From a virus, in IMG/VR virus record IMGVR_UViG_3300031603_000002, positions 1-64,000 of that record: DNA of 64,000 nucleotides; one strand, written 5' to 3'. A program made the translations under genes and the position numbers. The stretch's first letter is position 1. Each line of letters starts with the position of its first letter. Positions 8,051 through 53,985 of this stretch are shown here, one piece after another. The notes beneath the pieces were generated by a model that saw nothing but the letters and a program-made list of their open reading frames with translations, made no database searches and had not been told where the DNA came from.

Positions 8051-8455
8051 ATGAGTCAACACTACGCACCGCCTGGCCACGGAATGGTCAGCGAATATCA
8101 GGCATCCGGCGTGCCGTTTGTCAGTTCATCAGCATCTATGGTAAACACAACAGTCGAAAAGTTCACGTTTCCATACGTGTCAAGGCATATAACCATTTTC
8201 AATTCTGGTTCGACGCCAGTTCGAGTCGGTTTTACTGAAAACGGTGTAAACGCCAATCCGGAAAACTCTAACTATTTTTTGGTCTTGGGAATGAGCAACA
8301 CCCCTAGGTTCGAATTAAAATGCGACGAAATCTTCGTAAGAAAGGACGCCGGAACTGATCCGAACATTGTGTCGGTCATCGCCGGTATGACAAACGTGCC
8401 CAGGAAGAATTTCTTCGTAATGTCTGGTTCGAACGGTGTTGTAGGAGTAGGATAA
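8051..8455 (+). CDS. Hypothetical beta-rich virion protein
   Basis: 134-aa ORF in head module. Confidence 0.55.
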   Translation: MSQHYAPPGHGMVSEYQASGVPFVSSSASMVNTTVEKFTFPYVSRHITIFNSGSTPVRVGFTENGVNANPENSNYFLVLGMSNTPRFELKCDEIFVRKDAGTDPNIVSVIAGMTNVPRKNFFVMSGSNGVVGVG

Positions 8456-9006
8456 TGGCGAAAATGACAAAGGCATCATTAAAAGGTCTCATCAAAGAAT
8501 GTCTCGTTGAGCTTCTAAGCGAAGGACTTGGTGTTCCCCCCATGAGTTTAACAGAGGGGCACCAACGGCGTGCACCAGCCCAAGCGAGACAACGCAAACC
8601 ACAACGTCAACAGAAAAAGGCATCAATTTTTGATCAAATGGATGCGTCGTTTCAGCAGCCTGCCGATACACCCAATCCCGCATCAAATTTGGCATCAATG
8701 GCAACTGATGATGTAATGCTTCAAGGCATCTTGAGTGAGACAGCAAGCACGACGTACATCGATCGAATGAAACATGAAACAAGCGTACCCTCAGTTCCAT
8801 ACATGTCAGCGCCGTCGCTCCCCGGCGCACGAGACGAATATGGAATGGGCCAACAAACAATATCAGAGGCAGCGCATACAAGGCAGCCTCAAGCACCAAC
8901 ACCACATCATGAGGCTGCGGGTCTAGACATTAATGCATTGTTTGGCGATGCTGCTGCAAATTGGGGAGAAGTTTTAGAGCGTTCAACGACCAAAAAACTT
9001 CCATAA
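8455..9006 (+). CDS. Putative prohead core protein with leader MAKMTKASLKGLIKE
   Basis: N-terminus matches the MK(I/M)TxxxLxxLIxE family. Confidence 0.55.
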   Translation: MAKMTKASLKGLIKECLVELLSEGLGVPPMSLTEGHQRRAPAQARQRKPQRQQKKASIFDQMDASFQQPADTPNPASNLASMATDDVMLQGILSETASTTYIDRMKHETSVPSVPYMSAPSLPGARDEYGMGQQTISEAAHTRQPQAPTPHHEAAGLDINALFGDAAANWGEVLERSTTKKLP

Positions 9007-9046
9007 GCATATTTAGACAAGAGCCCACAAGGCGAAGGAGAATTTT

Positions 9047-9325
9047 ATGGCAAAGAAAGTACGACGAATCACCCCTGGCTTCCTGAAGAAGATTATCATT
9101 CAAGAGGCTAGGAAACTAAAACTAGAAACGATTGAGCAAGGTAAGAAGGCAGCTGAGGACGTCAACGCTGACGAAGTTGATGCTGATGCGCTCGCCGGTA
9201 CGCTTGAGCAGGATCTTGATTTTATCAAGGCTCTGAAGATTAAGGAAGCGAAGATGGTTCGCGGTCTCAAGAGGTTGCGTGAGCAGAAATCAAAGTTGCG
9301 TCGCCGAGTCGCTCGCCGAATCTAA
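9047..9325 (+). CDS. Small putative prohead core protein
   Basis: RITPGFLKKIIIQE leader-like segment; AAGGAG RBS; ATATTTA at 9009. Confidence 0.6.
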   Translation: MAKKVRRITPGFLKKIIIQEARKLKLETIEQGKKAAEDVNADEVDADALAGTLEQDLDFIKALKIKEAKMVRGLKRLREQKSKLRRRVARRI

Positions 9326-9354
9326 AACTTTGTTCATGCTAGAAGGAGAACATC

Positions 9355-9930: not shown

Positions 9931-9948
9931 GTCACCGGAATAGTTGAT

Positions 9949-10458: not shown

Positions 10459-10499
10459 TTTTCCAAAGTTACCGAATACTTAGTTGCAAGAGGTTATGG

Positions 10500-12251
10500 A
10501 TGTCAACAGTATATGACGAAGCATTGCTAGACGCGCAAAAAATTCGAGATGCAGCCGAACAAGCTGCACAGGCTCGAATTATGGAAACGATAACTCCACA
10601 AATCAGGGAAATGATCAACAACAGAATTTTGTTCGAACAAGACGAAACTGATGAAGACGAAACTGATGAAGATGATGAAGGCACGATGGGTGACATGGAA
10701 GACGATTACGATCTTGAATCCATGCTCAACGGAATGCCTGATGTCGGAGTTGATTTCGAAGATGCCGCATCGCAAGAGGCAGTTACACAGGCAGGTTCTG
10801 TTTCAGTTCATGCTGCAGGCGACGTGAACATTAACGTATCGGAGTCACACGACGAAATGATGCTAGGTGAAGCCGGCGCAAACGTTCTTGCGTCCCTTAT
10901 TAATAAGGACTTCGTCGCACCGCGTCGTCTCGAAGAGAAAATCGACGACCTATCGAAGCGAGTCAAGAAACTCGGCGATGTGGTGAGCGTACTTCGAGAG
11001 AGCAAATTATCAAACGTTAAAAGAAAACGATTAGAACTAGGTTTTATGTCATGTGTTAAGGACGCGGTGTCCTTGCAGAATGAAGTAAAATCGAGTGGAA
11101 CAGGTCATCGGCGCCTTCATGCAAAGCTGAATTCTACCATTAAGGAGATGAGAGAAATGTCAAGTAAATACAAAAAGAACATTTTCGACTTTCTTTTCGA
11201 GGGCGATGACGCTGAATCGAAGAAGAAAGATGCGAACGACGCCGTGAACGAGCAGGAAGAAACTGGAGAGGACGTTGAAGTTCTTGATGGTGGTCTTGAG
11301 GATTCAGGCGAAGAATTGGATTTGGATGTCGAAGAAGAAGGCGTTCCAACAGGCGACGTTGATGTCGACGCTGCAACCTCCGCACTCCAGAGCCTCGGTT
11401 CTGCTCTTGGTCTCGACCTTGAGATTGTCGGTGAGGAAGGCGGCGGCGAAGAAGACTTCGGTGGCGAAATGGATTATGAGGAAGGTGGCGAAGAAGGATT
11501 CGACGATGTTGAAGACCTGGACGTTGACCTGGAAGAATCAGCATGGTCCGGCCTGAAAGAGTCTGATGACTTGGACGAAGTCTACGAAATCGATGAGTCG
11601 GTTCTTCGTAATGAGCTTTCACGCATGCGTCGTGGTAAGCGAGCACCAGTTCGTGAGTCCGCTGCACGTAAGAAATTGCGTCGAATGGTTCGCGAAGCTG
11701 CTGAAGATGAAGCTGACCAGTTTGGTGACGGTAAGATTCTCGGTGACGTGATTGAAATCGACGAAGACACACTGATCAACGTCCTAGCGGATGAGCTCGG
11801 TACAGTCGCTGAGGGTCGCCGACCAGCGCGTCGTCAACGACGCGCACCTCGAGGTCGCCGACCAGCACCTCGTGCTCACGCACGTGCTATGAAAGAAGCA
11901 AAGACATACAAAACTGCGGCAACCAAGTTGAAGAAACAACTGGTTGAAATGAACATGTTCAACGCGAAGCTCTTGTTTGCTAACAAGTTGCTCCAGAACA
12001 AGGGACTAACCGTAAAACAACAGCGAGCAATTGTTGAGGCGATCGATAATGCCAAGACGCTCCGTGAGGCAAAACTGCTTTACAAATCACTCTCCGAGTC
12101 ACTCACTCGTAGGGGCCAAGGTGGCGAAACACTGAGTGAAGGAAAAAGGACTCTCGGGTCGTCTTCCAGATCAACCCGGTCAGGGCAACCTGCCAAAAGT
12201 GGTGTTGATGCAGGTCGATGGGCAGTCCTAGCAGGTCTTCCCGGCAAATAA
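10500..12251 (+). CDS. Prohead scaffold/core protein (gp22-like role)
   Basis: Immediately upstream of MCP; very acidic, coiled coil, many (L/V)xE sites; ends GRWAVLAGLPGK. Confidence 0.8.
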   Translation: MSTVYDEALLDAQKIRDAAEQAAQARIMETITPQIREMINNRILFEQDETDEDETDEDDEGTMGDMEDDYDLESMLNGMPDVGVDFEDAASQEAVTQAGSVSVHAAGDVNINVSESHDEMMLGEAGANVLASLINKDFVAPRRLEEKIDDLSKRVKKLGDVVSVLRESKLSNVKRKRLELGFMSCVKDAVSLQNEVKSSGTGHRRLHAKLNSTIKEMREMSSKYKKNIFDFLFEGDDAESKKKDANDAVNEQEETGEDVEVLDGGLEDSGEELDLDVEEEGVPTGDVDVDAATSALQSLGSALGLDLEIVGEEGGGEEDFGGEMDYEEGGEEGFDDVEDLDVDLEESAWSGLKESDDLDEVYEIDESVLRNELSRMRRGKRAPVRESAARKKLRRMVREAAEDEADQFGDGKILGDVIEIDEDTLINVLADELGTVAEGRRPARRQRRAPRGRRPAPRAHARAMKEAKTYKTAATKLKKQLVEMNMFNAKLLFANKLLQNKGLTVKQQRAIVEAIDNAKTLREAKLLYKSLSESLTRRGQGGETLSEGKRTLGSSSRSTRSGQPAKSGVDAGRWAVLAGLPGK

Positions 12252-12302: not shown

Positions 12303-14189
12303 ATGTCTACATTTAATCTAGAAATGCTAACCGAGGGGATTCAAAAACGTCACGTCGGAGCACAAAACAAACTACTCATCGAGAAGTGGAACCGTACTGG
12401 TCTTCTTCGCGGGCTTGGCGGCACGAAACGAGAGAACATGGCACGCTTGCTCGAAAGTCAGGCTGGCCAGGTAATCAGGGAGGCATCGTCAATTTCGACT
12501 GGCGGCGCAAACGGAACTTCGTCAGGTGACCTTCGTGGTTTTACAAACATCGCATTCCCATTGGTTCGCCGAGTCTTCGGTGGATTGATTGCGAACGACC
12601 TTGTTTCGATTCAGCCAATGAGCCTTCCTTCCGGACTGCTCTTCTACATGGACTACACTTACGGTGGAGACATGGCGGGTAACGTCGGAGCTGCGGTGCC
12701 TTACGCATCAGGTTCGTCAATCTACAACAGCCCAACCGGCAAAGGCATTCAGTCTGGTTCGCAGGGTGTCGGTGGTCAGTACGACCTAGCCGGTTCAGGT
12801 TTCTCACGTGTGTACGGTGTAACAGCCGCAACAACGTTGCTAACCTCGGGCGCTTTCGGCAGCGGAAACACATTTGTTGTTTCCAAGGCCCTGGCTGCAA
12901 CCGGTTCCGACGGTAAACTGCTACAGTACGATCCGCAGATCACAAACGCAATTGAGAACAACGCCGCTGGACCAGGCGAGAAGGTTGGTAACGGTGTATA
13001 CTCGGCGGTCGTGGTTTCGTTGGCTTCAGGCGGCACACTCTTTGGTGATGCTGACCTTACGTTGTCTAAGGACTTCTCGATGGGGCCAACCAACCCATAC
13101 AAGATTGTTGGTAACGACACCAATGGTAACGCAATCCAGGGTGGTAGCACAGCTAACATTCGTCGATTGAACCAGATGGGTGTGTGGGATGGTAACACAT
13201 TCACGCCTAACGGGCTCGTAAGAGCTGGTGAAGCTGGCGCTGCACTCTTGATGATCGTTTCTGGTGCAAACGTGGCTACTGTCGCGGCGGCATCTGTTAT
13301 ACTTGCTAAGCCATTGGCTGCAGCACTTGATTCGGCAGCGAACACAGGCGACACCTTGGTGATTCCTTCGTTCGAGTCTGATTTCGGAGTCAACCCTTCA
13401 CCGGCAATCCCTGAAATCGACATCAAGATCGAGTCAATCGCTGTTGTTGCTGAAACTCGTAAGTTGCGTGCACGCTGGTCGCCAGAAATGGCACAGGACC
13501 TGAATGCTTACCACAGCCTTGACGCTGAGGTTGAGTTGACACACATCCTGTCCGAGCAGATCGCAATGGAGCTTGACCGAGAAATCTTGAATGACTTGCT
13601 GACACAGGCTGGAGCCGCGCGCTTCTACTGGTCACGTAGTCCAGGCAAGTTCCTCAACAAGCAGACTGGTCAAGAGGTCAACCGTACAAACTCACTGACT
13701 CCTGGTCCGGCATTCACCGGTACAGTACGAGAGTGGTACGAGACTCTTATCGAGACCATCATCGATGTTGCTAACGAGATCCATCGTAAGACACTTCGTG
13801 GTTCGGCTAACTTCATCGTTGTCGGCCCGGATGTTGCAACAATCTTCGAGTCTTCAATCCTGTACAAGCCAAGCTTCTCGCTTGACGCTGACGGACAGGT
13901 TGGCCCGATGGTTATCGGTGCTGAGAAGGTTGGTACCCTGTCGAATCGCTTCTCGGTTTACAAGGACCCTTACTTCCCACGCAACCAGATTCTGGTTGGA
14001 TACAAGGGCGGAAGCTACCTGGAGACAGGATACGTCTACGCTCCTTACGTCCCGTTGATCGTGACTCCTACCATCTTCGCACCCGAAGACTTCACACCTC
14101 GAAAGGGCGTGATGACTCGGTACGGTAAGAAAATGGTGAGAAATGACTTTTATGGCACGGTAACTTGCCTTGACATGAATGTGATATAG
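12303..14189 (+). CDS. Major capsid protein (T4 gp23-like)
   Basis: FPLVRRVF, VSIQPMSLP, ETRKLRARWSPEMAQDLNAYH, YAPYVPL, PRKGVMTRYG. Confidence 0.97.
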   Translation: MSTFNLEMLTEGIQKRHVGAQNKLLIEKWNRTGLLRGLGGTKRENMARLLESQAGQVIREASSISTGGANGTSSGDLRGFTNIAFPLVRRVFGGLIANDLVSIQPMSLPSGLLFYMDYTYGGDMAGNVGAAVPYASGSSIYNSPTGKGIQSGSQGVGGQYDLAGSGFSRVYGVTAATTLLTSGAFGSGNTFVVSKALAATGSDGKLLQYDPQITNAIENNAAGPGEKVGNGVYSAVVVSLASGGTLFGDADLTLSKDFSMGPTNPYKIVGNDTNGNAIQGGSTANIRRLNQMGVWDGNTFTPNGLVRAGEAGAALLMIVSGANVATVAAASVILAKPLAAALDSAANTGDTLVIPSFESDFGVNPSPAIPEIDIKIESIAVVAETRKLRARWSPEMAQDLNAYHSLDAEVELTHILSEQIAMELDREILNDLLTQAGAARFYWSRSPGKFLNKQTGQEVNRTNSLTPGPAFTGTVREWYETLIETIIDVANEIHRKTLRGSANFIVVGPDVATIFESSILYKPSFSLDADGQVGPMVIGAEKVGTLSNRFSVYKDPYFPRNQILVGYKGGSYLETGYVYAPYVPLIVTPTIFAPEDFTPRKGVMTRYGKKMVRNDFYGTVTCLDMNVI

Positions 14190-14323: not shown

Positions 14324-15109
14324 ATGAGATCTTGCAAAATATGTGGAAAGGAATTTACTAGACTAGCTGCTCATGTCAATCGTTCACATAATGTTGGCTA
14401 TGAAGGATATATGTTGGAATTTGAATATAACGGAATCAATCCAAAATGCAAATGTGGTTGTGGCAACAACACTCCGTTTACACGCTCACATGGGATGGGA
14501 TTTTTAAGCTATATTCATGGGCACTCTGCCAGAATTGAAGGGCGACTGACTGCAGAATCTAAGCGCAAAATCGGCGAAAAGAACAGAAAAAATATGAAAC
14601 GGTATATGACGGAAAATCCTGAGCATGCAAAGAAAAAAGCAAAACAAATGTACTCGGCAATCATACCAGAGGTCCGTAAACGATCTGCGAAAACAAACGC
14701 GGAAAATTGGCAGAAACCGCATATGGCAGAGAAGCGAAAGGAAGCGACAATCCGTGCAATCGAACTCAGCGAGCAAGGCATCATCGGGCCGCAGGCGCCA
14801 TTCAAGACCGAGTGGAAGTTCAACCCGTTCACACAACAAAATGAGTATATGCATTCCGGCTGGGAGTCGCGGTTTCTAGACGAGTGTATCGAACAGGATG
14901 AATCAGTCACTAAAAAGCACGAAATCCGCATCCCATACAATGACCCAAACGGTGTCGAGAGAACCTACGTACCAGACTTCCTGTCAATCTCAGGCTCAAC
15001 ACTCTACGAAGTCAAGGGCCAGGAAAATGACACCGACCCGCTAAAATACCAAGCCGCCATAAGCTGGTGCTCCCAGAACGACAAGAAATTCTGCGTCATC
15101 CGGTTCTAA
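14324..15109 (+). CDS. Free-standing homing endonuclease-like protein (Zn finger, NUMOD-like linker, TnsA-like PD-(D/E)xK)
   Basis: CKIC..H...H, CKCGCG, SGWESRF, RTYVPDFL, LYEVKG. Confidence 0.75.
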   Translation: MRSCKICGKEFTRLAAHVNRSHNVGYEGYMLEFEYNGINPKCKCGCGNNTPFTRSHGMGFLSYIHGHSARIEGRLTAESKRKIGEKNRKNMKRYMTENPEHAKKKAKQMYSAIIPEVRKRSAKTNAENWQKPHMAEKRKEATIRAIELSEQGIIGPQAPFKTEWKFNPFTQQNEYMHSGWESRFLDECIEQDESVTKKHEIRIPYNDPNGVERTYVPDFLSISGSTLYEVKGQENDTDPLKYQAAISWCSQNDKKFCVIRF

Positions 15110-15144: not shown

Positions 15145-15762
15145 ATGAAAAACAGCCAAACATTGACACGATTCATCAACGAAACCCTTGAATCAGACGA
15201 TTATCGTGGAAGTCACCAGGCAGCAGACAGGGAAGGTGGCTGTCCGATGACAGACGTCACTAAAAATGACATTTATCCAGATGATTTCTACACATCAGTC
15301 GGCTCAACATATTACGGTGATGGCCGACGCACAGACTATCAAGTCTGGGCAATGATAAAACGTGTGCACAACAAAAAATGGGCGCAAGTCAAAGTTTATC
15401 GAGCTGTCCCGCATAAGCCGACAAATGATGAAAGAATTTCACAAATAGAAAAAGAGCAAGCAGAAATGCTAAAAACAGGCAAGCTTCCAATGCTTGCTGT
15501 AACTCCACTAAGTCAAAGCCAGTATTACAACAAAAACTACAATGAGTTAGAAACCCTGTTGAAGCAAGATGCTGATGAACCACCCCGCCCGAAACTAAAA
15601 ATAAATCCAGGCGATTGGGTCACGATTTTTAGGCCGTACGCATCAGAACACGGTCGTGCTTCGCTAAACAACGAATACAAAATATTGAGCAAGACAGTTT
15701 TTGCCCGGGACCTGTATACAGAAGGCAACAGCATGTACGAATGGGGCTGGGACCCGGATTGA
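15145..15762 (+). CDS. Putative ADP-ribosyltransferase-fold protein with leader-like N-terminus
   Basis: LTRFINE leader; VKVYRAVP, GDWVT, YEWG resemble the R..S/T..E ART pattern. Confidence 0.5.
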   Translation: MKNSQTLTRFINETLESDDYRGSHQAADREGGCPMTDVTKNDIYPDDFYTSVGSTYYGDGRRTDYQVWAMIKRVHNKKWAQVKVYRAVPHKPTNDERISQIEKEQAEMLKTGKLPMLAVTPLSQSQYYNKNYNELETLLKQDADEPPRPKLKINPGDWVTIFRPYASEHGRASLNNEYKILSKTVFARDLYTEGNSMYEWGWDPD

Positions 15763-15814: not shown

Positions 15815-16057
15815 ATGAAAATCACAAAAACACAACTCAGAAAATTGATCCGCGAACAAACTGAAGATAAGACCGATCGGGCAGAACAACTATTCAATCA
15901 ACTGGGCAAAGATGCACAAAAAGCGATAGAAAGTTTGCTGGGAAAGAAAGAGTTTTGCCAGGCAGTTGCGAAAGAGATTGAGCTCCACGGCGACCAAGCC
16001 GCGAAGCTGTCTGTAATTAGGGCAATTGCTTTGACACTAATAGGAAGGGCGCAATGA
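15815..16057 (+). CDS. MKIT-leader small protein
   Basis: MKITKTQLRKLIREQ; ATATTTA at 15787. Confidence 0.75.
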   Translation: MKITKTQLRKLIREQTEDKTDRAEQLFNQLGKDAQKAIESLLGKKEFCQAVAKEIELHGDQAAKLSVIRAIALTLIGRAQ

Positions 16058-16176
16058 AAATCACAGAATCACAACTTAGAAATATGGTCAAAGAACAGTC
16101 ACGACGCCCTCGCGTTGAAGTGAAACCCCAGCTTAACGACTACGATGAGCCTCTTCGTGGGTTACAAGCCGCATAA
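16054..16176 (+). CDS. MKIT-leader 40-aa ORF (below track cutoff), possibly frameshifted into 16145-16378
   Basis: Translated by hand: MKITESQLRNMVKEQSRRPRVEVKPQLNDYDEPLRGLQAA*; ATGA overlap with the previous stop. Confidence 0.65.
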   Translation: MKITESQLRNMVKEQSRRPRVEVKPQLNDYDEPLRGLQAA

Positions 16177-16378
16177 GTCGTATGTAAGGGTTTCACCGCC
16201 AGCACGTTTCCCATCAGAAGATTATGCAGCAGAAAGTTTGACGAATAGCGACTTCACCGTAGGCGGCACCCCGGGAACTCGTGAAGAATTCATCCAGTTC
16301 ATGGCGGCAAATGCTGGTAAGGGAATGCTAAACAAACGAGCTCCCAGGAAATACACCAACTTAGATTTCGTAACATAA
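16145..16378 (+). CDS. Hypothetical; possible 3' half of the 16054 gene
   Basis: Overlaps the 16054 ORF in +1 frame; no clear RBS. Confidence 0.4.
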   Translation: MSLFVGYKPHKSYVRVSPPARFPSEDYAAESLTNSDFTVGGTPGTREEFIQFMAANAGKGMLNKRAPRKYTNLDFVT

Positions 16379-18330: not shown

Positions 18331-18813
18331 ATGAAAATCACAAAAAGAAGCCTAGCGAGGCTTGTTACAGAAGCCAAACGCTTAAATGAAACATCTGATG
18401 GTTCAGAATACCGATATTGGATGTCATCAAAGGTTTGGGGGCTCGATACACTAAAAGAACTTCCAAGTCGACAGGCATCACGAGCCCGCGAAACATTTCC
18501 GGAATATTCCGCGTGGGATCTTTATGATAATGAGAATATACCCGACGATCTTGTAACAAATTTCACAGGCCGGCAACCTTTACCGAGTGTATTCATTATT
18601 TCCGGGAGGAACATTGATATTCTTGTTGACACATCAGGATTTGATTACGCTCGATATTCAGCGAAGATTGGTGATGGCTCCCTGGCAGATGACGATGTGA
18701 CTGATTCAGATGAATATATAACAGGTCGTGAAGATGCCCAGTATGGCGAGCCCCGCGATACATATGCAGGCCCGAGATACCAGTTAGCGTACGACACGTA
18801 CGAGGGCAAATAA
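18331..18813 (+). CDS. MKIT-leader protein
   Basis: MKITKRSLARLVTEAKRLNE; ATATTTA at 18228. Confidence 0.7.
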   Translation: MKITKRSLARLVTEAKRLNETSDGSEYRYWMSSKVWGLDTLKELPSRQASRARETFPEYSAWDLYDNENIPDDLVTNFTGRQPLPSVFIISGRNIDILVDTSGFDYARYSAKIGDGSLADDDVTDSDEYITGREDAQYGEPRDTYAGPRYQLAYDTYEGK

Positions 18814-19784
18814 TGAAACGACGTTATCCGAAACTTGTCGATATTCTTTTTGAGGATGTGACTGATGATATTGCCAAGGCGGCCAAAGGTGGCCCTGGTG
18901 CTGTTCGTTCATTCGTAGACAATTATCCGGATCCTGATGAGCTGAAGGCAGCCCTTGCTGGCACCCATGATAATGTCAAAACTGACGACACGACGAACGT
19001 ATCAGAACCTACAATGAGAAAAATCAGTGATTTCAAGCCAACCCAGAAAGAAATCGATATGATGAAGTCTGCGGCGTTCCCATTGGGAAGTGCAAAGGCT
19101 CTTGCGAAAGCAATTACATCGAACACGACAGATGCACCCGGCTCAATTACAGTCTCAGGCGATGATGTGATCGATGGGCATCACAGATGGTCAGGTGTTT
19201 GGGCAATTAGCGGACAAAGTGGTATGATCGGCGCTGAGGATTTGGATCTCCCCGGAGATACAACTCAGAAACTCGCCGCCGCGCAACTTGCCATCGCAGC
19301 GCATAAGGACGTAAACCAGGACATGCCAACAGCATCTGGCAAGATCGAAAATAACATTCTAGGCAAATCATCAGGCGAAATTGAAAAGATGATGGTGGCA
19401 AACATAGGCCGCCAGGTAGATCGAAGGGCCCCTGGGCCAATGTTAAATGACGAAATGGTTGCAAACTCATCGAAGGATAAGGTTATTGCCAAGTGGGCTG
19501 GATTCAAGCTCGGTGCTGATGCCAATGAAATAAAGGCAAAAATTATCAAGAAGATTTCGGCGAACCTGGCAACTGTGCCAGGTAACCCAAAGGCACCAGC
19601 CCGAGAGGATATGCCTCAACTAGACCACAAATCGATTGGTGGGAAGGCTGCAAAAGCTGCAATTTATGACAAATTGCAAAACGCTGAAATCAATATCAAA
19701 AACCCGCTGAGCCCGCAGAAAGAATCCGCAGAGCAGGATGGAAACCTATTGACAGAGCGCTGGTGCCGATTGGCTAGCTGCTAA
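18813..19784 (+). CDS. ParB/Srx-like domain protein
   Basis: FKPTQKEI...VIDGHHRW; N-terminal LVDILFE; C-terminal ERWCRLAS. Confidence 0.6.
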   Translation: MKRRYPKLVDILFEDVTDDIAKAAKGGPGAVRSFVDNYPDPDELKAALAGTHDNVKTDDTTNVSEPTMRKISDFKPTQKEIDMMKSAAFPLGSAKALAKAITSNTTDAPGSITVSGDDVIDGHHRWSGVWAISGQSGMIGAEDLDLPGDTTQKLAAAQLAIAAHKDVNQDMPTASGKIENNILGKSSGEIEKMMVANIGRQVDRRAPGPMLNDEMVANSSKDKVIAKWAGFKLGADANEIKAKIIKKISANLATVPGNPKAPAREDMPQLDHKSIGGKAAKAAIYDKLQNAEINIKNPLSPQKESAEQDGNLLTERWCRLASC

Positions 19785-20204: not shown

Positions 20205-20711
20205 ATGATAAAACCATATCCAGCTCCAGAACCCACAGTCATGAGGAAAATTCTTGATGGGAACCGACCGGCTGATTATGTCACATATTGGCATCGAATG
20301 CCGGGAAGGTATGTTTTGAAAGAGACAGGCGAGGATTGCGGAGATGAGGAAACACGCCCGCTATTTTATGGCACGGTGACAGAGTGGTATTCGCTTTTAG
20401 GCGAGGCAGTCTACGATGCTTGGTCGAAAATAACAGATAAGGGCCTTACAGGGATGACGTCAGGAATCATCGTGTCCAAGGATATTCAAACAGTCCTTGA
20501 GACAACGCATTGGTACCGCGGAATATATCATTACTGTAGTTGTTGCACAGCCAAAACTGAGTGGCCAGTGATTGGAGTGATTGACGGGATCCCCGTCTAC
20601 GCCAGCGATGAAGTAGGAAAAAAGGTCGTTGTGTTCATGACGGGTTGCGAGAAGTGTGATCTTGAAGCCATCGCCGAGGTAAGAATTAAGGGAATGAGTA
20701 GGATCAGCTAA
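20205..20711 (+). CDS. Stand-alone paralogue of the MCP C-terminal (A-domain) region
   Basis: YWHRMPGRYVLKETG / FYGTVTEWYSLL / IIVSKDIQTVLE versus MCP YWSRSPGKFLNKQTG / FTGTVREWYETL / IVVGPDVATIFE. Confidence 0.8.
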   Translation: MIKPYPAPEPTVMRKILDGNRPADYVTYWHRMPGRYVLKETGEDCGDEETRPLFYGTVTEWYSLLGEAVYDAWSKITDKGLTGMTSGIIVSKDIQTVLETTHWYRGIYHYCSCCTAKTEWPVIGVIDGIPVYASDEVGKKVVVFMTGCEKCDLEAIAEVRIKGMSRIS

Positions 20712-21427
20712 GAGTCGGCGGCAATCGAGCGACCAAATAGCTGACGCAACGTTTTCCACGCAGGCAATTCCATTTGGCTGATGAACTGGTGATTAGTTTT
20801 TATCGCAGTGTCAACGATTGAAAAACGATGTTTTCTGTCACGTAATGATAACATGTTGATCCCTAGCAAAGAGTGTTCAGGGTTTTCGTGAGCTGATTTT
20901 GCAGCGCCCGACATACGGCGCAGCTCCACATCAAGCTTCATTCCAGGAAATTTGTTTAACCTTCTTCTGAAATCATCTTGTTCCCTTCTTTCCCATGCAG
21001 AACCGTCGCTGTACCAGGCGTCTCTATCGAGTTCATCAACCGACATTGATTTGCCCAGAAATTTGAGTTCACCATTCTGTTTGATTTTCTCCCACACATC
21101 GTTTTTGATAAGAACCTCAGTCCCCCAATCATATCGATGTAATCCACCGCTGGCTGAAATTGCCCACTCAGGTACCTGGTATGCATAGACGTTCCCACGA
21201 ATGCCATGATTGGCACGAATACCACGTGGGTTCGTTGACATAAAGATTCCGCCGTCTTCGTTCTTCGGCAGCCAATCCCGATCCCACCCTTTCCCACGCC
21301 TCTCAGGACGAGGCTGCACAGGTCGCTTGTCAATACGATAAAGCGTTCGACTGTTTTTTCTCGCGCCCCGTATCTCTTTGAGGATCGCCCTAACGAATGT
21401 TTCAAGTTGAAGATTATCGTGCGTCAT
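20708..21427 (-). CDS. Putative ADP-ribosyltransferase-fold protein with leader-like N-terminus
   Basis: LETFVRAILKE; TLYR, IFMSTNP, TEVLI (R-S-E pattern); ATATTTA on - strand at 21433-21439. Confidence 0.5.
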   Translation of the reverse strand: MTHDNLQLETFVRAILKEIRGARKNSRTLYRIDKRPVQPRPERRGKGWDRDWLPKNEDGGIFMSTNPRGIRANHGIRGNVYAYQVPEWAISASGGLHRYDWGTEVLIKNDVWEKIKQNGELKFLGKSMSVDELDRDAWYSDGSAWERREQDDFRRRLNKFPGMKLDVELRRMSGAAKSAHENPEHSLLGINMLSLRDRKHRFSIVDTAIKTNHQFISQMELPAWKTLRQLFGRSIAADS

Positions 21428-32069: not shown

Positions 32070-32330
32070 GTGAAAATCACACAGAAACAATTGCGTAGGT
32101 TGATCAAGGAACAAACCGACGACTGGTACGAGCCAGGCGACGGGAAATGGGATGACTACGATGATGATGAAGAATTAGCAAGTGTGATTGACGAAGATCC
32201 TACTGACATGGCCCAAATCCTGTTACGAAACAATCGCAACTGGAAACAGGGTCGAAACGCGGACGAAGTATATATTATGACAGGCGAAGCCGAGGGCATC
32301 ACGGTCAAGGTTATGAGGAGAGGACGATGA
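32070..32330 (+). CDS. MKIT-leader small protein
   Basis: MKITQKQLRRLIKEQ (GTG start). Confidence 0.75.
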   Translation: MKITQKQLRRLIKEQTDDWYEPGDGKWDDYDDDEELASVIDEDPTDMAQILLRNNRNWKQGRNADEVYIMTGEAEGITVKVMRRGR

Positions 32331-32542
32331 AAATCACAAAACGGCAATTACAAAAACTTATTCAAGAACAACACGATCCAGAGCGTCTCGGCATGGAACC
32401 GGGGGAGGAGCTTGAGGAGCAGTTTGCAAATGCGATTGCAGAGGCTGTATCCGAAGGAATGGACCGCTACGATATAAAGCTGGCCTTCGATAATGCATGG
32501 GATTATGTTGAAGCAACACTCACGCACACCCCGGGATACTAA
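32327..32542 (+). CDS. MKIT-leader small protein
   Basis: MKITKRQLQKLIQEQ. Confidence 0.75.
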   Translation: MKITKRQLQKLIQEQHDPERLGMEPGEELEEQFANAIAEAVSEGMDRYDIKLAFDNAWDYVEATLTHTPGY

Positions 32543-32545
32543 ACA

Positions 32546-32809
32546 ATGAAAATCACGCAGAAACAATTGCGTCGGCTTATCAAAGAAGAAAGAACACTTC
32601 TTTCCGAAATGAACCCTAACGGAACAATTTCTGATGATGAGGACCAGGCACGAGATGATCTTATGGCAGCTGTCGAAATACAGGTCGATGAGCTTGTACA
32701 ATATATTGAAGAGCAAGCGTGGAAAATCGGCGGAGACTTTAGAGGTCCAGGAATCAGATATCAGGCATTGAAGATTCTCAATAAAAGAGTTCAAAGGAGA
32801 TCACTATGA
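32546..32809 (+). CDS. MKIT-leader small protein
   Basis: MKITQKQLRRLIKEERTLLSE. Confidence 0.75.
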   Translation: MKITQKQLRRLIKEERTLLSEMNPNGTISDDEDQARDDLMAAVEIQVDELVQYIEEQAWKIGGDFRGPGIRYQALKILNKRVQRRSL

Positions 32810-33303
32810 AAATCACACGCAGACAAATCAGAAATTTGATTAGCGAGCAGTCAGACAACGGTTTTTCAGTTGGCGACACAGTCGTTGCAACAATTTTCGG
32901 CAAGGCCAAAAAGGGAAAAATCACAGAAATGCATGGCATGGGTGACATGGCAAGCGTAGATTTTGGAAACGGAGACGTTTATGGAATTATGCTGAACAGG
33001 CTAAAACCTTCGAAACGGGTTAACGAGCAGAACTACGGCCGCGGTCAGAACTATGGGTACTCACCCACTGGTCGTCCACCTCGCAAACGCGGATTTAATC
33101 AGGCTAGCTCGGCATCAATGTCAGCGGCAAAATCATTGCGTGCAAAATTCAAACGACGATACCCTGACGCACAGATAAAAATTGATGGCAGAAACGGGTG
33201 GATCATCGTAAATGGAAAGAATGTCGTAAACATGGGTGCCAACGGCGCCAGCAATTATGACGAAATGGCAGAAAAAATGGAAGCTGCGTTATCAGGATTC
33301 TAG
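32806..33303 (+). CDS. MKIT-leader protein with SH3/KOW-like module
   Basis: MKITRRQIRNLISEQ; FSVGDTV...GKITE...VDF. Confidence 0.7.
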   Translation: MKITRRQIRNLISEQSDNGFSVGDTVVATIFGKAKKGKITEMHGMGDMASVDFGNGDVYGIMLNRLKPSKRVNEQNYGRGQNYGYSPTGRPPRKRGFNQASSASMSAAKSLRAKFKRRYPDAQIKIDGRNGWIIVNGKNVVNMGANGASNYDEMAEKMEAALSGF

Positions 33304-34847: not shown

Positions 34848-35636
34848 ATGAACATCTCATCAATAAGAGCATTTGTCCGCACCACTCTCCTACAAGAAAA
34901 AGCTTCAACGGCAGAAATGGCCTCGAATGACAATTTAGCGCTGGCAACATATAAAGACCGTGACGAGTATGGCGACATTTCATATGTCCTTTTCGATAGA
35001 AATTTGTTCATTCATTTTTTCATACAAGAAGTCAAGGCAATTGCGAAAGACGATGGCATATCAATCTCTGACATAATAAGAGACGAGTTTGATGATGTCT
35101 TATCTGACTTATCTGCTAGAATGGCGGAACACGCAGTTTCGTTCGTCCTAGGCACAATTGACATAGAGAAGGCATGGGACGGGCCGAGTAACGACGCCAG
35201 TATGGTACATGCTCCGGCGGCCTCAAAAGGTTATGGCCCGTTGATGTACGATATAGCCATGGCAGACGCCGGCGAGCTCATGCCTGATCGTCAACCCGAT
35301 GTGTCGAAATCTGCACAGAGCGTTTGGAAATATTACAAAAACAAAAGAAGCGACGTCGTATCAACACCCCTAGACAACATTCGTAATCCGCAGACACCAC
35401 AAAAAACAGACGATGCCTCTGTTCATAAAAAAGGCAAAGAGAATTTTGGTAACTTCTTGGATTCATCGTACCATCTTAAGGGTAAGGGTCCTGACGTTGC
35501 TGGAATGACTGCATCATTTAAACAACTCGAGGCGTATGTTGGCAAGAAGCTAAACATAACTCCGTACACCCTCCATGACATTTTGTGGACTTCTGCCGAG
35601 GCTTTTTACGACATCAGGCACGACACAGAAAACTAA
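34848..35636 (+). CDS. Putative GNAT-like acetyltransferase with leader-like N-terminus
   Basis: IRAFVRTTLLQE; SKGYGPLMYDIAM, DR..VSKSAQSVWKYY. Confidence 0.5.
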   Translation: MNISSIRAFVRTTLLQEKASTAEMASNDNLALATYKDRDEYGDISYVLFDRNLFIHFFIQEVKAIAKDDGISISDIIRDEFDDVLSDLSARMAEHAVSFVLGTIDIEKAWDGPSNDASMVHAPAASKGYGPLMYDIAMADAGELMPDRQPDVSKSAQSVWKYYKNKRSDVVSTPLDNIRNPQTPQKTDDASVHKKGKENFGNFLDSSYHLKGKGPDVAGMTASFKQLEAYVGKKLNITPYTLHDILWTSAEAFYDIRHDTEN

Positions 35637-48732: not shown

Positions 48733-49230
48733 ATGAACGACAAACTTGATGCGATGCTTTTAGAAGCGGTTAAAGATTTTCTACATGAGGAAAAAGCCAG
48801 TAAGAGTAAGGTGGACTATCGGGGAGCGTATGGCACCGGCGGTGCCTTTAGCAAAGAGATCGCGTTTACTAAAGGCCGGGCTGAAACTGATCCAAAAGGC
48901 CTATTACGCGATCTCGGTATAACTCAAAAAGCAGAAGGAAAGACTGACGCAATCAAAGCGGCATCTATCTTGCAACAAGCAATTCGGGCAAACGAGACCA
49001 TGGCTGAGGCCTTCGGTGACGTCAAAAGAACGATGACGAAGACTTCAAAAGGTAAAGACATTGAAGGTTTTAGCATTTCGTTTGATGACGATTTGAAACA
49101 ACGTGATGCAACGAAATATCTCGTCATCACCTTACGTGCTGCGGAGAATGGTGGCGTGCTGCACCTCGACAAGGGCATCAGTTTTGCTAGTGCTAAATTG
49201 GTTTCAAAACCAACAATTTACTCAAAGTAA
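48733..49230 (+). CDS. Hypothetical protein with leader-like N-terminus
   Basis: LDAMLLEAVKDFLHE; ATATTTA at 48706. Confidence 0.6.
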   Translation: MNDKLDAMLLEAVKDFLHEEKASKSKVDYRGAYGTGGAFSKEIAFTKGRAETDPKGLLRDLGITQKAEGKTDAIKAASILQQAIRANETMAEAFGDVKRTMTKTSKGKDIEGFSISFDDDLKQRDATKYLVITLRAAENGGVLHLDKGISFASAKLVSKPTIYSK

Positions 49231-49259: not shown

Positions 49260-49265
49260 GTTATC

Positions 49266-51033: not shown

Positions 51034-51053
51034 ATGACTGTGTAAGGTCAGCG

Positions 51054-51097
51054 ACAAAGCGGGGACGGCATTTATTGTCATCCCCGCTTTGTTCTTT
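51054..51097 (+). terminator. Terminator-like hairpin after SSB
   Basis: ACAAAGCGGGGA...TCCCCGCTTTGT followed by TCTTT. Confidence 0.75.
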
Positions 51098-51136
51098 GGA
51101 GGTAAAAATACTAATATTACATACATGGAGAAAATT

Positions 51137-52390
51137 ATGGTAGTAAAAAAGAAAGTAACGCCAAGAAAGAAACCAGCGCCACGAAAAAAGAAAGTCGCTA
51201 AGAAAGACGAGTTGACCGAGGACTTTACAAAAGACCTGATTGCCTCGCTAAACAAAGAATTTGGTTCAAAGGTTGCGTATAATCTAGGCACCGAAATTTC
51301 TCCTACACATGTAAAGCGGTGGATTCCAACAGGATCACGCCAGATTGATTACATGGTCGCAAACCGCCGCCATGGCGGGCTTCCAGAAGGTCGTATTATC
51401 GAAATTTTCGGTCCGCCTTCGATCGGCAAGTCACACATCGCAACCCAGATTGCAAGGTCAACTCAAGAAATGGGCGGGCTGGCTGTATATATTGACACCG
51501 AGAACGCAACCTCAGTTGAGAATCTGGCAATGCTCGGTATCGATATTTCAAAACGATTCGTTTATGTTGACCAACACTGTACAGAAGACGTCTTGAAAAC
51601 CGCAGAGTCCACGATCTTGAAAGCGAAAGCTATGAAAAAAGACGTGCCGATTACAATAATCTGGGATTCTGTCGCAGCATGTTCCCCAAGGGAAGAACTT
51701 GACGGTGATTACGACAAAAACTCAATTGGACTTCAAGCAAGAGCTATCTCAAAGGGCATGCGCAAAATCACAGGTGTCATTGGAAGCCAAAATGTCCTCC
51801 TTGTTTGCCTGAATCAAACGAGAACGAAAATCGGTGTGATGTTTGGTGACCCAACGACGACTCCAGGTGGTGCCGCGATCCCATTCCATTCGTCAGTAAG
51901 GATCAGGCTCGGTGCCGGTCAACAAATCAAAGCCAAAAATGGAGATGTGATCGGCATCCACGTGTGGGCAAAGACAATCAAAAACAAGGTTGCCATGCCC
52001 TTCCGGAAAGTCAAATTCGAAATCCACTTTGGTAAGGGCATTTTTGAACATGAGCAGATTTTTGATGTGTTGCGGAAACACGGCCCTGAAGATATTGATG
52101 GGAAAACGATATCAGTCAGCGGAGCCGGCGCAAGCAAAGATTTCATTGTCACCGACACAGAAACCGGCGAAGTCCTTATCGAAAAGAAGTTCTACAAATC
52201 GAAATTCAACAAACTCCTAGATAGCGATGAATATGGTCCGTACCTCGCAGATTTGTTCGACAAGGTTTACGTGAAAACAATAGCGAACCCATATGACATG
52301 GAAATCGACGAGAACTCATATGAAGAGGTAAGTGCCTTAGCGGATGAGCTAGGAGCCATCGACGCCGATGTCCTAGAGGAAATTGCATAA
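51137..52390 (+). CDS. recA: RecA/UvsX recombinase
   Basis: GGLPEGRIIEIFGPPSIGKS, YIDTE, WDSVAA, LNQTR, TTPGG. Confidence 0.92.
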   Translation: MVVKKKVTPRKKPAPRKKKVAKKDELTEDFTKDLIASLNKEFGSKVAYNLGTEISPTHVKRWIPTGSRQIDYMVANRRHGGLPEGRIIEIFGPPSIGKSHIATQIARSTQEMGGLAVYIDTENATSVENLAMLGIDISKRFVYVDQHCTEDVLKTAESTILKAKAMKKDVPITIIWDSVAACSPREELDGDYDKNSIGLQARAISKGMRKITGVIGSQNVLLVCLNQTRTKIGVMFGDPTTTPGGAAIPFHSSVRIRLGAGQQIKAKNGDVIGIHVWAKTIKNKVAMPFRKVKFEIHFGKGIFEHEQIFDVLRKHGPEDIDGKTISVSGAGASKDFIVTDTETGEVLIEKKFYKSKFNKLLDSDEYGPYLADLFDKVYVKTIANPYDMEIDENSYEEVSALADELGAIDADVLEEIA

Positions 52391-52391
52391 G

Positions 52392-53357
52392 ATGAATCAG
52401 CCTGCCCACCAAGATCGTCCAGTTTTGATTATCGACTTCATGAACATGTTCATCAGGCATTTCAAAGCCAACCCGTCAATGGCATCCACCGGAGAACCAG
52501 TCGGCGGAGTTATGGGCTTTCTTGGTGGTTTGGGACGGTTGTGCGAAACATACAATCCAAAAAAGGTAATCGTTGTTTTCGAGTCAGGCGGAAGCCAAAG
52601 AAAACGAGCAATTTCAGCGTCGTATAAGAACGGTCGAAAGGCACCGAAAATGAATCGGTACTACGGCGATGACATTCCAACGACACCTGAGAATTTTGCC
52701 ATGCAAGTTCTGTTTATTACCCGTGCATTGAAATGTTTGCCGGTGACACAGGTGTACGTCTCAGGCTGCGAAGCAGACGACGTTATAGGTTACCTAGGCC
52801 GGTACCATTTCAAGACGTCCAGGGTCATTCTGGTGTCTTCAGACAAGGATTTCTATCAGCTCATCGATGAACGAGTGCAACAATGGTCGCCCGGACAGAA
52901 AAAGTTGATTACAGAACAGGCTGTTATAGACAAGTTTGGTGTTTCTCCACAGAATTTTTGTTCAGCGAGGGTGTTCATCGGGGATCCGAGTGACAACGTT
53001 TCTGGTGTGAAAGGTGTAGGCTTCAAGAATATGGCAAAGTGGTTCCCGCAACTGGGTGGATCCGAGTTCATTAGTCATAACGATGTTGTTGATAGCGCCA
53101 TCGAATTGGCGAAAACAAAGGCAGCCAAAACGATTCATCGGATTGCTGAATCTAGAGATTTGGCGCTGAAAAACTGGAGACTGATTTACCTGGATACATC
53201 TCAACTATCAGGAGACCAGATTCAAAAGGTAAATCATCAGATTGAAAATGAGGGTGAGGGAAACAAGATGCAGTTGATGCGTCAGTTAATCCAATCGGGC
53301 ATGCAAAAATTTGATATTGATCGACACTTCGCCGCGATTATGTCAATTCGACGCTAG
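52392..53357 (+). CDS. 5'-3' exonuclease / T4 RNase H-like flap nuclease
   Basis: LIIDFMN, YKNGR, EADDVIG, SSDKDFYQL, GDPSDNVSGVKGVG. Confidence 0.9.
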   Translation: MNQPAHQDRPVLIIDFMNMFIRHFKANPSMASTGEPVGGVMGFLGGLGRLCETYNPKKVIVVFESGGSQRKRAISASYKNGRKAPKMNRYYGDDIPTTPENFAMQVLFITRALKCLPVTQVYVSGCEADDVIGYLGRYHFKTSRVILVSSDKDFYQLIDERVQQWSPGQKKLITEQAVIDKFGVSPQNFCSARVFIGDPSDNVSGVKGVGFKNMAKWFPQLGGSEFISHNDVVDSAIELAKTKAAKTIHRIAESRDLALKNWRLIYLDTSQLSGDQIQKVNHQIENEGEGNKMQLMRQLIQSGMQKFDIDRHFAAIMSIRR

Positions 53358-53686
53358 CCAGAATATTCTGTGCCCCATTCTTCAACAGCAGCCTGGACCC
53401 GCTGAACAGGGACGCCTTCATCTTCGGCGACTTGTTCAATTGCATACTTCTCAGCGTTATAACCAGGTGCACCGTAAGCAATGTATTCACCAACATATTG
53501 AGCGAGGTTAAAGTCAGAAGCCTTAGGTGGTCGACTCTGTTGTGGTCTCCGGCGTGGCGTTGAAGCCCCGGGAACCATACGTTGTTCACCATTGTGATCT
53601 GTGTACCAATCAAGCGTTGAATCTCGAATATCAGCCAGTCCGGCTTCACGAATGAGTTTTGTTAGTCGTTTTTTTGTAATTTTCAT
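53354..53686 (-). CDS. MKIT-leader small protein
   Basis: MKITKKRLTKLIREA. Confidence 0.75.
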   Translation of the reverse strand: MKITKKRLTKLIREAGLADIRDSTLDWYTDHNGEQRMVPGASTPRRRPQQSRPPKASDFNLAQYVGEYIAYGAPGYNAEKYAIEQVAEDEGVPVQRVQAAVEEWGTEYSG

Positions 53687-53985
53687 TCTGTCCCGCTTAT
53701 TAGGTCACGCGTGTTGACTGTAAAGAGTCTGTCTCTACGAAGGTCATACACTTCTGTTCGCGATCCATCATCGCTTGTGCGTCCCACTTCAATTTCAGTT
53801 CCTGCGAGCAGCCACGCTGTTCGTCCTGATGAGCGATTTTGCAGTCCGCCCTGGTTGAGCCATAAAACATCACCGGTCAGGACTTCGCGACTACCAGGCC
53901 CTAGACCGTAATCTTCGAGCTCTGATTGGTGCAAATCAGCATATTCTCGAATGAGCCTTGTCAGGCCATTTTTTGTCATTTTCAT
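53683..53985 (-). CDS. MKMT-leader small protein, SH3-like tail
   Basis: MKMTKNGLTRLIREY; AAGGA RBS; ATATTTA on - strand at 54009-54015. Confidence 0.75.
   Translation of the reverse strand: MKMTKNGLTRLIREYADLHQSELEDYGLGPGSREVLTGDVLWLNQGGLQNRSSGRTAWLLAGTEIEVGRTSDDGSRTEVYDLRRDRLFTVNTRDLISGTE

Follow-up and report, generated by a model that had tools for sequence, protein, structure and literature searches.

A conserved 14-residue N-terminal leader, probably a capsid-targeting propeptide, on diverse proteins of an uncultured T4-like jumbo phage

A leader of 14 residues stands at the N-terminus of otherwise unrelated proteins in an uncultured phage. It probably acts as a capsid-targeting propeptide like those of T4, which would load the attached cargo into the prohead and be cut off by the S77 protease. 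The DNA is that of IMG/VR virus record IMGVR_UViG_3300031603_000002, and the window, i.e. the whole stretch analyzed, comprises positions 1-64,000 of a 96.6-kb contig. The window represents the structural region of a jumbo phage distantly related to T4; its head genes encode a portal resembling gp20, an S77 prohead protease resembling gp21, and a capsid protein resembling gp23. The link of the leader to head morphogenesis is supported by several independent results, all obtained from sequence.

The leader family and its genes

A preliminary description of the window had claimed ten near-identical N-termini, and we found all of them in place, at 8455, 15815, 16054, 18331, 32070 (GTG start), 32327, 32546, 32806, 53686(-), and 53985(-). 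A six-frame regular-expression search with xK(I/M)TxxxLxxLIxE gave these 10 matches in the window; over the whole 96.6-kb contig there were 12, with 67384 and 85742 as the additional positions. All 12 were at ORF starts, and no internal copy of the strict motif was found by this search of the contig. A leader HMM recovered 11 ORF starts at 20-38 bits, versus a background of at most 8.6 bits; the leader of 8455 scored only 8.6 bits because of its MAK offset. As had also been claimed, the sequences are unrelated past the Glu, the best cargo pair in an all-against-all BLASTP having E=0.19. The strict leader-cargo genes of the window are the following.

15815..16057, plus strand: leader-cargo gene, 80 aa, MKITKTQLRKLIRE then Q; leader HMM match; ATATTTA 28 nt upstream
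16054..16176, plus strand: truncated leader cassette, 40 aa; the orthologue in the close relative G001 is a single 117-aa ORF
18331..18813, plus strand: leader-cargo gene, 160 aa, acidic, MKITKRSLARLVTE then A; leader HMM match
32070..33303, plus strand: four leader-cargo genes in tandem (32070, GTG start; 32327; 32546; 32806); leader HMM match
53354..53985, minus strand: two leader-cargo genes, 53985 with MKMTKNGLTRLIRE then Y and 53686 with MKITKKRLTKLIRE then A; leader HMM match

The leader listed at 16054 is indeed present, but the gene is a disrupted cassette, since the close relative has an intact ORF. The rest of its cargo is encoded at 16145-16378 in a different reading frame, and 83% nucleotide identity to G001 resumes at 16158. 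The protein of 18331 matched no Pfam or PHROG family. The four-gene array has sheath 2 on one side and the tail tube on the other; G001 has two genes only at this place, and its alignment is interrupted from +41 of the 32070 leader to the first nucleotide (+1) of that of 32546. Similarly, a G001 homology block begins precisely at the ATG of 15815, and another block has its limit at +41 of the leader of 53985, a gene with ATATTTA 30 nt upstream.

The clade consensus of the leader is MKITKRQLRRIIKE. Its C-terminus reads (L/I)I(K/R)E, with Glu at position 14 in 123 of 138 proteins and Ile or Val at position 12 (P3) in 135, and conservation ends abruptly at Glu14. The leader is basic (net charge about +4) with a heptad-like hydrophobic spacing, and a low-confidence AF2 model of 32806 has it as a helix (residues 5-13) followed by a linker. 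A Sec, Tat, or lipoprotein signal peptide was rejected, because this needs, behind a basic N-region, a hydrophobic core of at least 7 residues, while MKITKRQLRRIIKE has at most 2 consecutive hydrophobic ones.

The preliminary description had also listed looser leaders ending in Glu. As a class these were borne out: in genes that do not belong to the strict family, the pattern hydrophobic-xx-hydrophobic-hydrophobic-x-Glu was enriched about 3-fold within the 22 N-terminal residues (8/110 genes, against a rate of 2.4% for internal windows; p=0.005). A 318-kb relative, tested likewise, gave 35/444 versus 2.5%, an excess that may partly be due to unfiltered strict leaders. Among the single cases, 9047 (listed with the head genes below) was confirmed by its conservation in the clade, while 34848 does not fit the pattern. 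Taken singly, 15145, 18813, 21427(-), and 48733 are uncertain candidates.

15145..15762, plus strand: looser candidate, 205 aa, MKNSQTLTRFINE then TLE; fits the enriched pattern; phrog_2579, E=3.9e-30
18813..19784, plus strand: looser candidate, 323 aa, MKRRYPKLVDILFE then D; fits the enriched pattern
20708..21427, minus strand: looser candidate, 239 aa, MTHDNLQLETFVRAILKE then I; fits the enriched pattern; ATATTTA 12 nt upstream
48733..49230, plus strand: looser candidate, 165 aa, MNDKLDAMLLE then AVKDFLHEE; fits the enriched pattern; ATATTTA 27 nt upstream of the ATG
34848..35636, plus strand: looser candidate, 262 aa, MNISSIRAFVRTTLLQE then K; weakest of the set, no pattern match

Head genes, relatives, and cassette turnover

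Further evidence for a role in head assembly came from the head module itself.

7427..8050, plus strand: prohead protease of the T4 gp21 type (Peptidase_S77); PF03420, E=5.8e-25; phrog_207, E=4.7e-51
8455..9006, plus strand: conserved head-module protein with leader MAKMTKASLKGLIKE then CLVELLSEGL; between the protease and capsid genes
9047..9325, plus strand: second conserved head-module protein, offset leader MAKKVRRITPGFLKKIIIQE then A; ATATTTA 38 nt upstream
10500..12251, plus strand: scaffold-like protein (gp22 position, acidic, helical); conserved through the clade
12303..14189, plus strand: major capsid protein (MCP), gp23 type; PF07068, E=1.5e-77

In an alignment, the conserved His, Ser, and Asp blocks of the protease (LGECDHP, GISSRGVGS, and WDFV) match those of T4 gp21 (LGELNHP, GVSSRGLGS, and VDAV), and this protease is presumably the enzyme that would remove the leader. 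Homologues of 8455 have the same N-terminus at the same locus in relatives with 60-92% MCP identity, and the 9047 family keeps (R/K)K-x-T-P-xx-L-K-K-xx-x-E-E clade-wide, 4-8 residues from the N-terminus, also in relatives with few or no cargo leaders. The best non-family match of the leader HMM (14.2 bits) was an internal site of the scaffold-like protein, RKKLRRMVRE then A (residues 390-399, nt 11667-11696). The predicted maturation site of the MCP, QVIRE60/A61 (VIRE60, nt 12471-12482), aligns with FLTE65/A66 of T4 gp23, and [VLIM][LI][KR]E is present at this site in all clade MCPs listed (69 of the 82 aligned). T4 gp23 loses 65 residues, and such proteases all cut after Glu (PMC9026906, PMC5694885).

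The relatives contain 11-35 leader genes per genome. Up to about 27 stand in tandem in one array, and some ORFs join several leader-cargo units in frame. The 138 leader proteins fell into 106 cargo clusters, and the leader matches 8,542 database clusters (50% identity). Cassette gains and losses between close relatives have their breakpoints within leader DNA, and 6 of the 52 homology-block ends between two close relatives lie inside leaders. The idea that the family is expanded and modular, already put forward from the window, is thus strongly supported by the gene numbers, the cluster numbers, and this turnover. Contigs retrieved solely by the leader DNA pattern had 7-35 leader genes each and PF03420 in 4/5; the fifth is a 43% fragment. 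The leader family was not found in any phage of the GenBank collection, and T4 had zero matches to the leader HMM.

The cargos are 25-210 residues long, and none has a recognizable function. D+E exceeds K+R in the cargos of 9 of the 12 strict leader proteins of the contig, with the same tendency in G001. Hydrophobic-hydrophobic-x-Glu was not depleted in the cargos (observed 50, expected 49), whereas proteins that have to withstand the protease could be expected to avoid it, though this test has low power. A homologue of one cargo bears a different, T4-like leader, MNSFKELFTE.

ATA(T/C)TTA precedes the MCP, scaffold, adaptor, sheath, and tube genes by 22-47 nt and leader genes by 24-30 nt, at a spacing like that before the MCP gene; leader genes lacking their own copy lie within structural operons. 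The motif may be a promoter with late timing. In the long arrays of other genomes the promoter-like motif was not seen before each gene. This last point, the acidic cargos, the undepleted cleavage motif, and the lack of homology to the T4 capsid-targeting sequence (CTS) were counted against a propeptide.

Level of selection and alternative explanations

Selection on the leader acts on the peptide, because the invariant residues use synonymous codons freely: all six Leu codons are in use at position 8 and three Ile codons at position 12, and the third positions of invariant residues hold 0.1-0.5 bit (0.12 bit for Leu8) versus 2.0 bits at the second positions. It is therefore very improbable that the repeat is a recombination or translation-initiation cassette conserved for its DNA or RNA, with the likeness of the peptides as a by-product. 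This explanation would account for the strong conservation of the first 12 nt (ATGAAAATCACA) and for the block ends inside leaders, but recombination at leaders is better read as following from the coding sequence that they share. This explanation also does not agree with the 30 nt upstream, where conservation is at most 0.5 bit per column and almost absent except for a run of purines some 8-11 nt ahead of the start codon, at the expected position of a ribosome-binding site. A DNA-level mobile regulatory cassette, such as the T4-type promoter and stem-loop repeats, was rejected on the same grounds of unconserved flanks (at most 0.5 bit per column) and free synonymous sites.

Two explanations that accept a selected peptide are also unlikely. 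The leader could be a tag for another shared partner, e.g. a RiPP or radical-SAM modifying enzyme, a chaperone, or a sorting machine, since a conserved leader with hypervariable bodies and many precursors per genome is also the design of RiPPs. Radical-SAM genes occur in 3/5 leader-rich genomes; yet those of G001 lie at a distance from the arrays, and neither the complete 293-kb genome G005, which has 29 leader genes, nor G009 has a match to PF04055, the radical-SAM class being the only one covered by this co-occurrence test. The size of the cargos is not peptide-like, and such a tag leaves unexplained both the leaders on head-module proteins and the match to the MCP cleavage site. We give a similarly low probability to a leader that stays on the protein as a working part, a basic amphipathic helix whose shared binding partner could be nucleic acid, a host complex, or other leaders. 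The charge, the hydrophobic spacing, the low-confidence helix and linker of the AF2 model, and the undepleted cleavage motifs would all fit with this, but a permanent helix does not account for the abrupt end of conservation at Glu14, for last four residues that copy the MCP maturation motif, or for the cargo homologue with the T4-like leader, and the head-module context and putative late-type promoters agree rather with a role in assembly.

The probable explanation is the capsid-targeting propeptide. The leader-cargo proteins would be made late, alongside the head proteins, and the basic leader, tentatively predicted to be helical, would bring the attached cargo into the prohead core during assembly. 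Cleavage after Glu14 would then fall to the S77 gp21-like protease, which would use for it the hydrophobic-hydrophobic-(K/R)-Glu motif of MCP maturation. The freed cargos would remain in the head and exit with the DNA, or in part undergo degradation, as core proteins do. All cassettes have their first 42 nt in common, and leaders could thereby recombine with one another, so that cassettes are added, deleted, and swapped and close relatives come to have different arrays. Counted against a propeptide as well is that a near-invariant stretch of 14 residues over thousands of clusters exceeds what a cleavage site needs, so that a conserved receptor has to be postulated. The reading of the leader as a packaging signal, proposed in the preliminary description, is partly supported, namely by the protease, the MCP-like site, the copies on head proteins, the shared motif, and the co-occurrence with the protease; core binding, cleavage, retention in the virion, injection, and an effector role are parts of it that we infer.

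Relation to known systems and meaning

The closest known system is that of T4, in which the CTS of the internal proteins IPI, IPII, and IPIII and the propeptides of Alt and gp24, all removed by gp21, are likewise short N-terminal tags (10-20 residues) on unrelated proteins. The tags in the T4 record, MKTYQEFIAE in IPII and IPIII and MAKINELLRE in gp24, resemble the leader in build; in both phages the tag ends in hydrophobic-x-Glu, the motif of the S77 protease that also trims the capsid protein, and related tags are found on head proteins. The leader is, however, longer and different (14 residues, MKITKRQLRRIIKE, versus MKTYQEFIAE). Its T4-like build without any T4 HMM match suggests that it is CTS-like in its proposed working, not a relative of the CTS in sequence. 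Leader phages also differ from T4 in having 11-35 tagged genes per genome rather than 3-5, mostly acidic cargos where T4 IPI-III are basic (K+R > D+E), and multi-unit in-frame leader-cargo fusions. In T-even phages the set of internal proteins is diverse and the CTS alone is conserved (PMC3012670, PMC9026906), so that the idea of diverse cargo behind a conserved CTS is already in print for these phages.

The giant phages phiKZ, 201phi2-1, and SPN3US have a gp21-related protease that cuts many of their head-internal proteins after Glu, and a role in bringing proteins into the prohead is ascribed to the propeptides; the SPN3US paralogues gp53 and gp54 have an identical 15-residue N-terminus (PMC5694885). 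The motif there is (S/A/G)-x-E or A-x-E, with a small P3, whereas P3 and P4 of the leader are Ile, Leu, or Val. Moreover, those propeptides mostly exceed 100 residues and do not form a common tag, while here a 14-residue tag is found on more than 100 unrelated cargos. A propeptide of the phiKZ/SPN3US type was rejected in view of this short length and of Ile or Val at P3 in 135/138.

A short terminal peptide, usually a C-terminal one, suffices to load heterologous cargo into encapsulins, whose shells have the HK97 fold. Neither these peptides nor the packaging signal of P1 DarB are known to be removed by a maturation protease or to be expanded into large gene arrays. The DarB signal is N-terminal, and there too a short terminal peptide suffices to load heterologous cargo into an HK97-fold shell (PMC9024508).

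The leader family is thus most likely a variant of the T4 CTS/internal-protein system. As the principle is already established for T4, the gain is one of scale, diversity, and predictive use, not of a new mechanism. If the tag works as proposed, sequence alone would mark proteins carried in the head and delivered at infection, a class that is very hard to identify when no host is in culture and that probably includes many anti-defense and host-takeover factors. Thousands of candidate injected proteins would then be available from the ocean virome. It would also provide a second well-defined targeting peptide for engineered protein delivery via T4-like capsids, and a natural example of a cargo repertoire turned over by recombination inside the tag. 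More tentatively, the tag could be the plug-in delivery system of an uncultured, abundant marine clade of T4-like jumbo phages, the injected cargos forming a fast-evolving arsenal for the first minute of infection, for example as acidic DNA mimics or anti-defense proteins. In this reading one invariant tag, recognized by the prohead core and cut by the head protease, would serve thousands of unrelated cargo families, with up to about 35 in a genome.

The leader family and the phage that carries it

The preliminary description listed ten proteins that share a near-identical N-terminus of about 14 residues, xK(I/M)TxxxLxxLIxE (starts at 8455, 15815, 16054, 18331, 32070, 32327, 32546 and 32806, and, on the minus strand, at 53686 and 53985), and all ten were found at these positions. 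The window covers the first two thirds of a viral contig of 96.6 kb. A regular expression of the motif, searched in all six frames, gave 10 matches in the window and 12 in the contig, and all 12 lay at ORF starts. With a profile of the first 15 residues, 11 ORF starts scored 20-38 bits, against at most 8.6 bits elsewhere; the best outsider was an internal site of the scaffold-like protein (14.2 bits). The claim that the sequences following the Glu (the cargos) are unrelated was borne out by an all-against-all BLASTP, in which no E-value fell below 0.19. One cassette, 16054-16378 (+), is broken: the leader and 26 residues are followed by a stop, and the remainder of the cargo lies in another frame at 16145-16378. 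Its orthologue in G001, a close IMG/VR relative, is intact (a single 117-aa ORF, 150128-149775).

Looser amphipathic N-termini ending in Glu had also been proposed at 9047, 15145, 18813, 21427, 34848 and 48733. They held as a class, and 9047 is a genuine relative; 15145, 18813, 21427 and 48733 are individually uncertain, and 34848 falls outside the test pattern. Genes outside the strict family showed a roughly threefold excess of hydrophobic-xx-hydrophobic-hydrophobic-x-Glu in their first 22 residues relative to internal windows (p = 0.005). The same test gave p = 6e-9 in G001, where unfiltered strict leaders may account for part of the excess.

The following genes identify the phage:

1906-3504, large terminase
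3557-6619 (+), portal of the T4 gp20 type, split by an intein with an HNH nuclease
7427-8050, prohead protease, S77 (T4 gp21-type)
12303-14189, major capsid protein (MCP), gp23-type

The window also encodes a head-tail adaptor, two tail-sheath paralogues, a tail tube and a baseplate hub. The best MCP matches were from a 484-kb uncultured phage (48% identity), Flavobacterium phage immuto and Rhodothermus phage RM378, and IMG/VR held at least 600 MCP relatives. G001 (318 kb, estimated 93% complete) has an MCP with 92% identity and is collinear with the contig at 78-86% nucleotide identity. This gene set and these relatives assign the window to a T4-like jumbo phage whose clade is abundant and uncultured. 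The GenBank phage collection contained neither a near DNA match to the window nor a relative of cargo 32546.

Several neighboring features were recorded. In the portal gene, Intein_splicing and HNH_3 (HNH homing endonuclease) matches span residues 88-450, and the Portal_T4 match begins at residue 448. Directly 3' of the MCP gene, 14324-15109 (+) is endonuclease-like (phrog_15427), with a zinc-ribbon-like N-terminus (MRSCKICGKEF); in T4 this position is occupied by the homing endonuclease segD. The sheath paralogues are adjacent (25783-28950, about 1,050 aa, and 28977-32060, about 1,030 aa, both +), each with a phrog_23 match; T4 has one sheath gene. Between portal and protease, the product of 6616-7458 (+) has the N-terminus MTKHNKKRNVGLIHEQLIRY, conserved in immuto (MRIKHSKYKNTGLIYELLVKQI) and Microcystis phage Mel-JY01, and the L-I-x-E within it may be another protease site. 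The NCBI source label of P0008, the G001 orthologue of 15815-16057, is a MAG of 'Bacteroidetes Order II. Incertae sedis'. This label and the likeness of the MCP to those of RM378 and immuto hint that the host is a marine member of Bacteroidota or Rhodothermota.

Spread of the leader and turnover of its cargos

G001 contains about 30 leader ORFs. To avoid circularity, we also queried IMG/VR with nothing but a degenerate DNA pattern of the leader. In the large contigs thus retrieved, many leader genes stand in tandem arrays, which contain up to about 27 members.

Large IMG/VR contigs retrieved through the leader DNA pattern
G005, 293 kb, complete, with terminal repeats: 29 leader genes
G006, 190 kb, complete: 11 leader genes
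G007, 242 kb, 57% complete: 27 leader genes
G008, 77 kb, 43% complete: 7 leader genes
G009, 202 kb, 73% complete: 35 leader genes

The consensus of 138 non-redundant leader proteins is MKITKRQLRRIIKE. Glu14 is present in 123 of them, and conservation collapses beyond it, the next residue being E, A, Q or S; one third have a second hydrophobic-hydrophobic-x-Glu at most 12 residues further on, in the form EEKAKLLxE. Their cargos fell into 106 BLASTP clusters (83 singletons), nearly every cargo being distinct within each genome. That the family is an expanded one was upheld beyond the contig: the leader profile matched 8,542 clusters at E≤0.001 among 1.84 billion representative proteins. No cargo family was found in Pfam or PHROGs for the leader proteins of the window and the ten largest of G001, and the ESM Atlas yielded no more than unnamed clusters, with scores below 0.8. 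A database search with cargo 32806 returned five relatives only; its AF2 model (pLDDT 59.7) had no Foldseek match to viral models at E≤0.001, and only generic small-barrel matches were obtained. Leader strings such as LRRIIKE and MKITKRQL were absent from the literature text searched.

In a comparison of the contig with G001, 6 of 52 homology-block ends lay no more than 50 nt into a leader gene, where 0.39 would be expected (p = 3e-6). The array 32070-33303 has four genes versus two in G001; homology is lost at +41 of the 32070 leader and starts again at +1 of the 32546 leader. There is one cassette versus three at the 67384 locus, and two versus six downstream of the MCP gene. The block ends inside leaders and the differences in cassette number therefore indicate that recombination between leader copies gains and loses cargos. 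Public data contain hundreds of proteins (P0001-P0058, P0124-P0268) in which two to four leader-cargo units are fused in one frame. The internal leaders keep their Met in 112 of 157 copies and are preceded by E/G/K-rich residues (e.g. EGKM) resembling a translated in-frame ribosome-binding site and start codon. P0123 is homologous to 32806 (32806-33303) in the SH3-like cargo domain but has a different, T4 CTS-like N-terminus, MNSFKELFTE, which shows that tag and cargo are separable. In P0122, the MKIT leader is joined straight to the C-terminal domain only.

Links to head assembly and a promoter-like motif

The protease is clearly related to T4 gp21, and the conserved His, Ser and Asp blocks of the two can be aligned. 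In T4, 65 residues are removed from gp23, and T4-type proteases cleave after Glu (PMC9026906, PMC5694885). The T4 gp23 site FLTE65/A66 aligns onto QVIRE60/A61 of the window MCP, and every clade MCP shown, 69 of the 82 aligned, keeps [VLIM][LI][KR]E at this site. The last four residues of the leader, (L/I)-I-(K/R)-E, have the form of this predicted maturation site. Between the protease and MCP genes, 8455 starts with the leader and 9047 with a shifted copy; both motifs persist in relatives whose MCP identity is as low as 60%, even where a genome has few cargo leaders or none. The acidic scaffold-like protein, in the gp22 position, has an internal RKKLRRMVRE/A. Of the five contigs retrieved by the leader pattern alone, four encode PF03420, the family of the gp21-type protease, and the one without it is the 43% fragment (G008). 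Depletion of hydrophobic-hydrophobic-x-Glu would be expected if cargos must survive the protease; we counted 50 versus 49 expected, in a test of low power.

A promoter-like motif, ATA(T/C)TTA, shows a strong strand bias in the contig, with 23 copies on the plus strand, which carries most genes, and 6 on the minus strand; 17 of the 29 copies are followed by a start codon at a distance of 12-47 nt.

ATA(T/C)TTA copies: window 9009, 10476, 12276, 15787, 22560, 25736, 33311, 36827, 49869 and others; G001 throughout

It precedes the MCP gene by 27 nt, the scaffold gene by 24, the adaptor gene by 23, and also the sheath and tube genes (47). Leader genes 15815, 53985, 67384 and 85742 have it at 27-30 nt, the remaining leader genes of the contig being inside head or sheath operons, and twelve leader genes of G001 have it at 24-29 nt. 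In other genomes, genes of the long arrays were not individually preceded by it. Two spacing classes were apparent, 22-47 nt before structural and leader genes and exactly 12 nt before many small genes of G001. The latter are Cys-rich and zinc-ribbon-like (e.g. MKTCPKCG..., MSTCKICKKKF...) and could represent mobile nuclease cassettes, each with a promoter of its own.

Function of the leader and comparison with known systems

The codons of 137 leaders from seven genomes were analyzed. All six Leu codons are used at the invariant Leu8, and three codons each at Ile11 and Ile12; the information content is 0.1-0.5 bit at third positions and 2.0 bits at second positions. Almost no information is present in the 30 nt preceding the leaders, except for a purine-rich stretch some 8-11 nt ahead of the start codon, the expected place of a ribosome-binding site. 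The codon usage shows that the leader is under selection as a peptide and not as DNA; a DNA-level cassette is contradicted by the same data and was rejected. We also rejected the idea that the leader tags its proteins for a radical-SAM modifying enzyme, since none is encoded in the complete genome with 29 leaders. A permanent functional helix is a rival explanation, but it accounts neither for the sharp stop of conservation at Glu14 nor for the likeness to the MCP site. By analogy with T4, the leader is likely to be a targeting and cleavage tag. Its N-terminal residues would bind the prohead core, and its last residues would form the protease site, two roles that have been mapped within the tag of T4 IPIII (PMC9026906). 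After shell assembly, the protease would cleave past Glu14 and free the cargo inside the head, from which it would exit with the DNA. We are less sure of this retention and injection, because some acidic cargos could, like T4 gp67 and gp68, serve as dispensable core filler.

Literature searches on the capsid targeting sequence (CTS), jumbo phages and prohead protease returned T4, phiKZ/SPN3US and P1 work only. T-even phages have diverse internal proteins in which the CTS alone is conserved, so that the principle is already published (PMC3012670). The T4 tags (MKTYQEFIAE in IPII and IPIII, MKTFKEF... in IPI, MAKINELLRE in gp24), as given in the T4 record, have the same build as the leader, but the leader is not related to the CTS in sequence, and most cargos are acidic, unlike the T4 internal proteins. 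Giant phiKZ-like phages process many head proteins, but their propeptides are long and have a different motif (PMC5694885), whereas the leader is short. The new elements here are a tag that is different, longer and almost without variation, the scale of its use (11-35 genes per genome and thousands of cargo clusters), and its occurrence in tandem arrays, with breakpoints inside leaders and multi-unit fusions.
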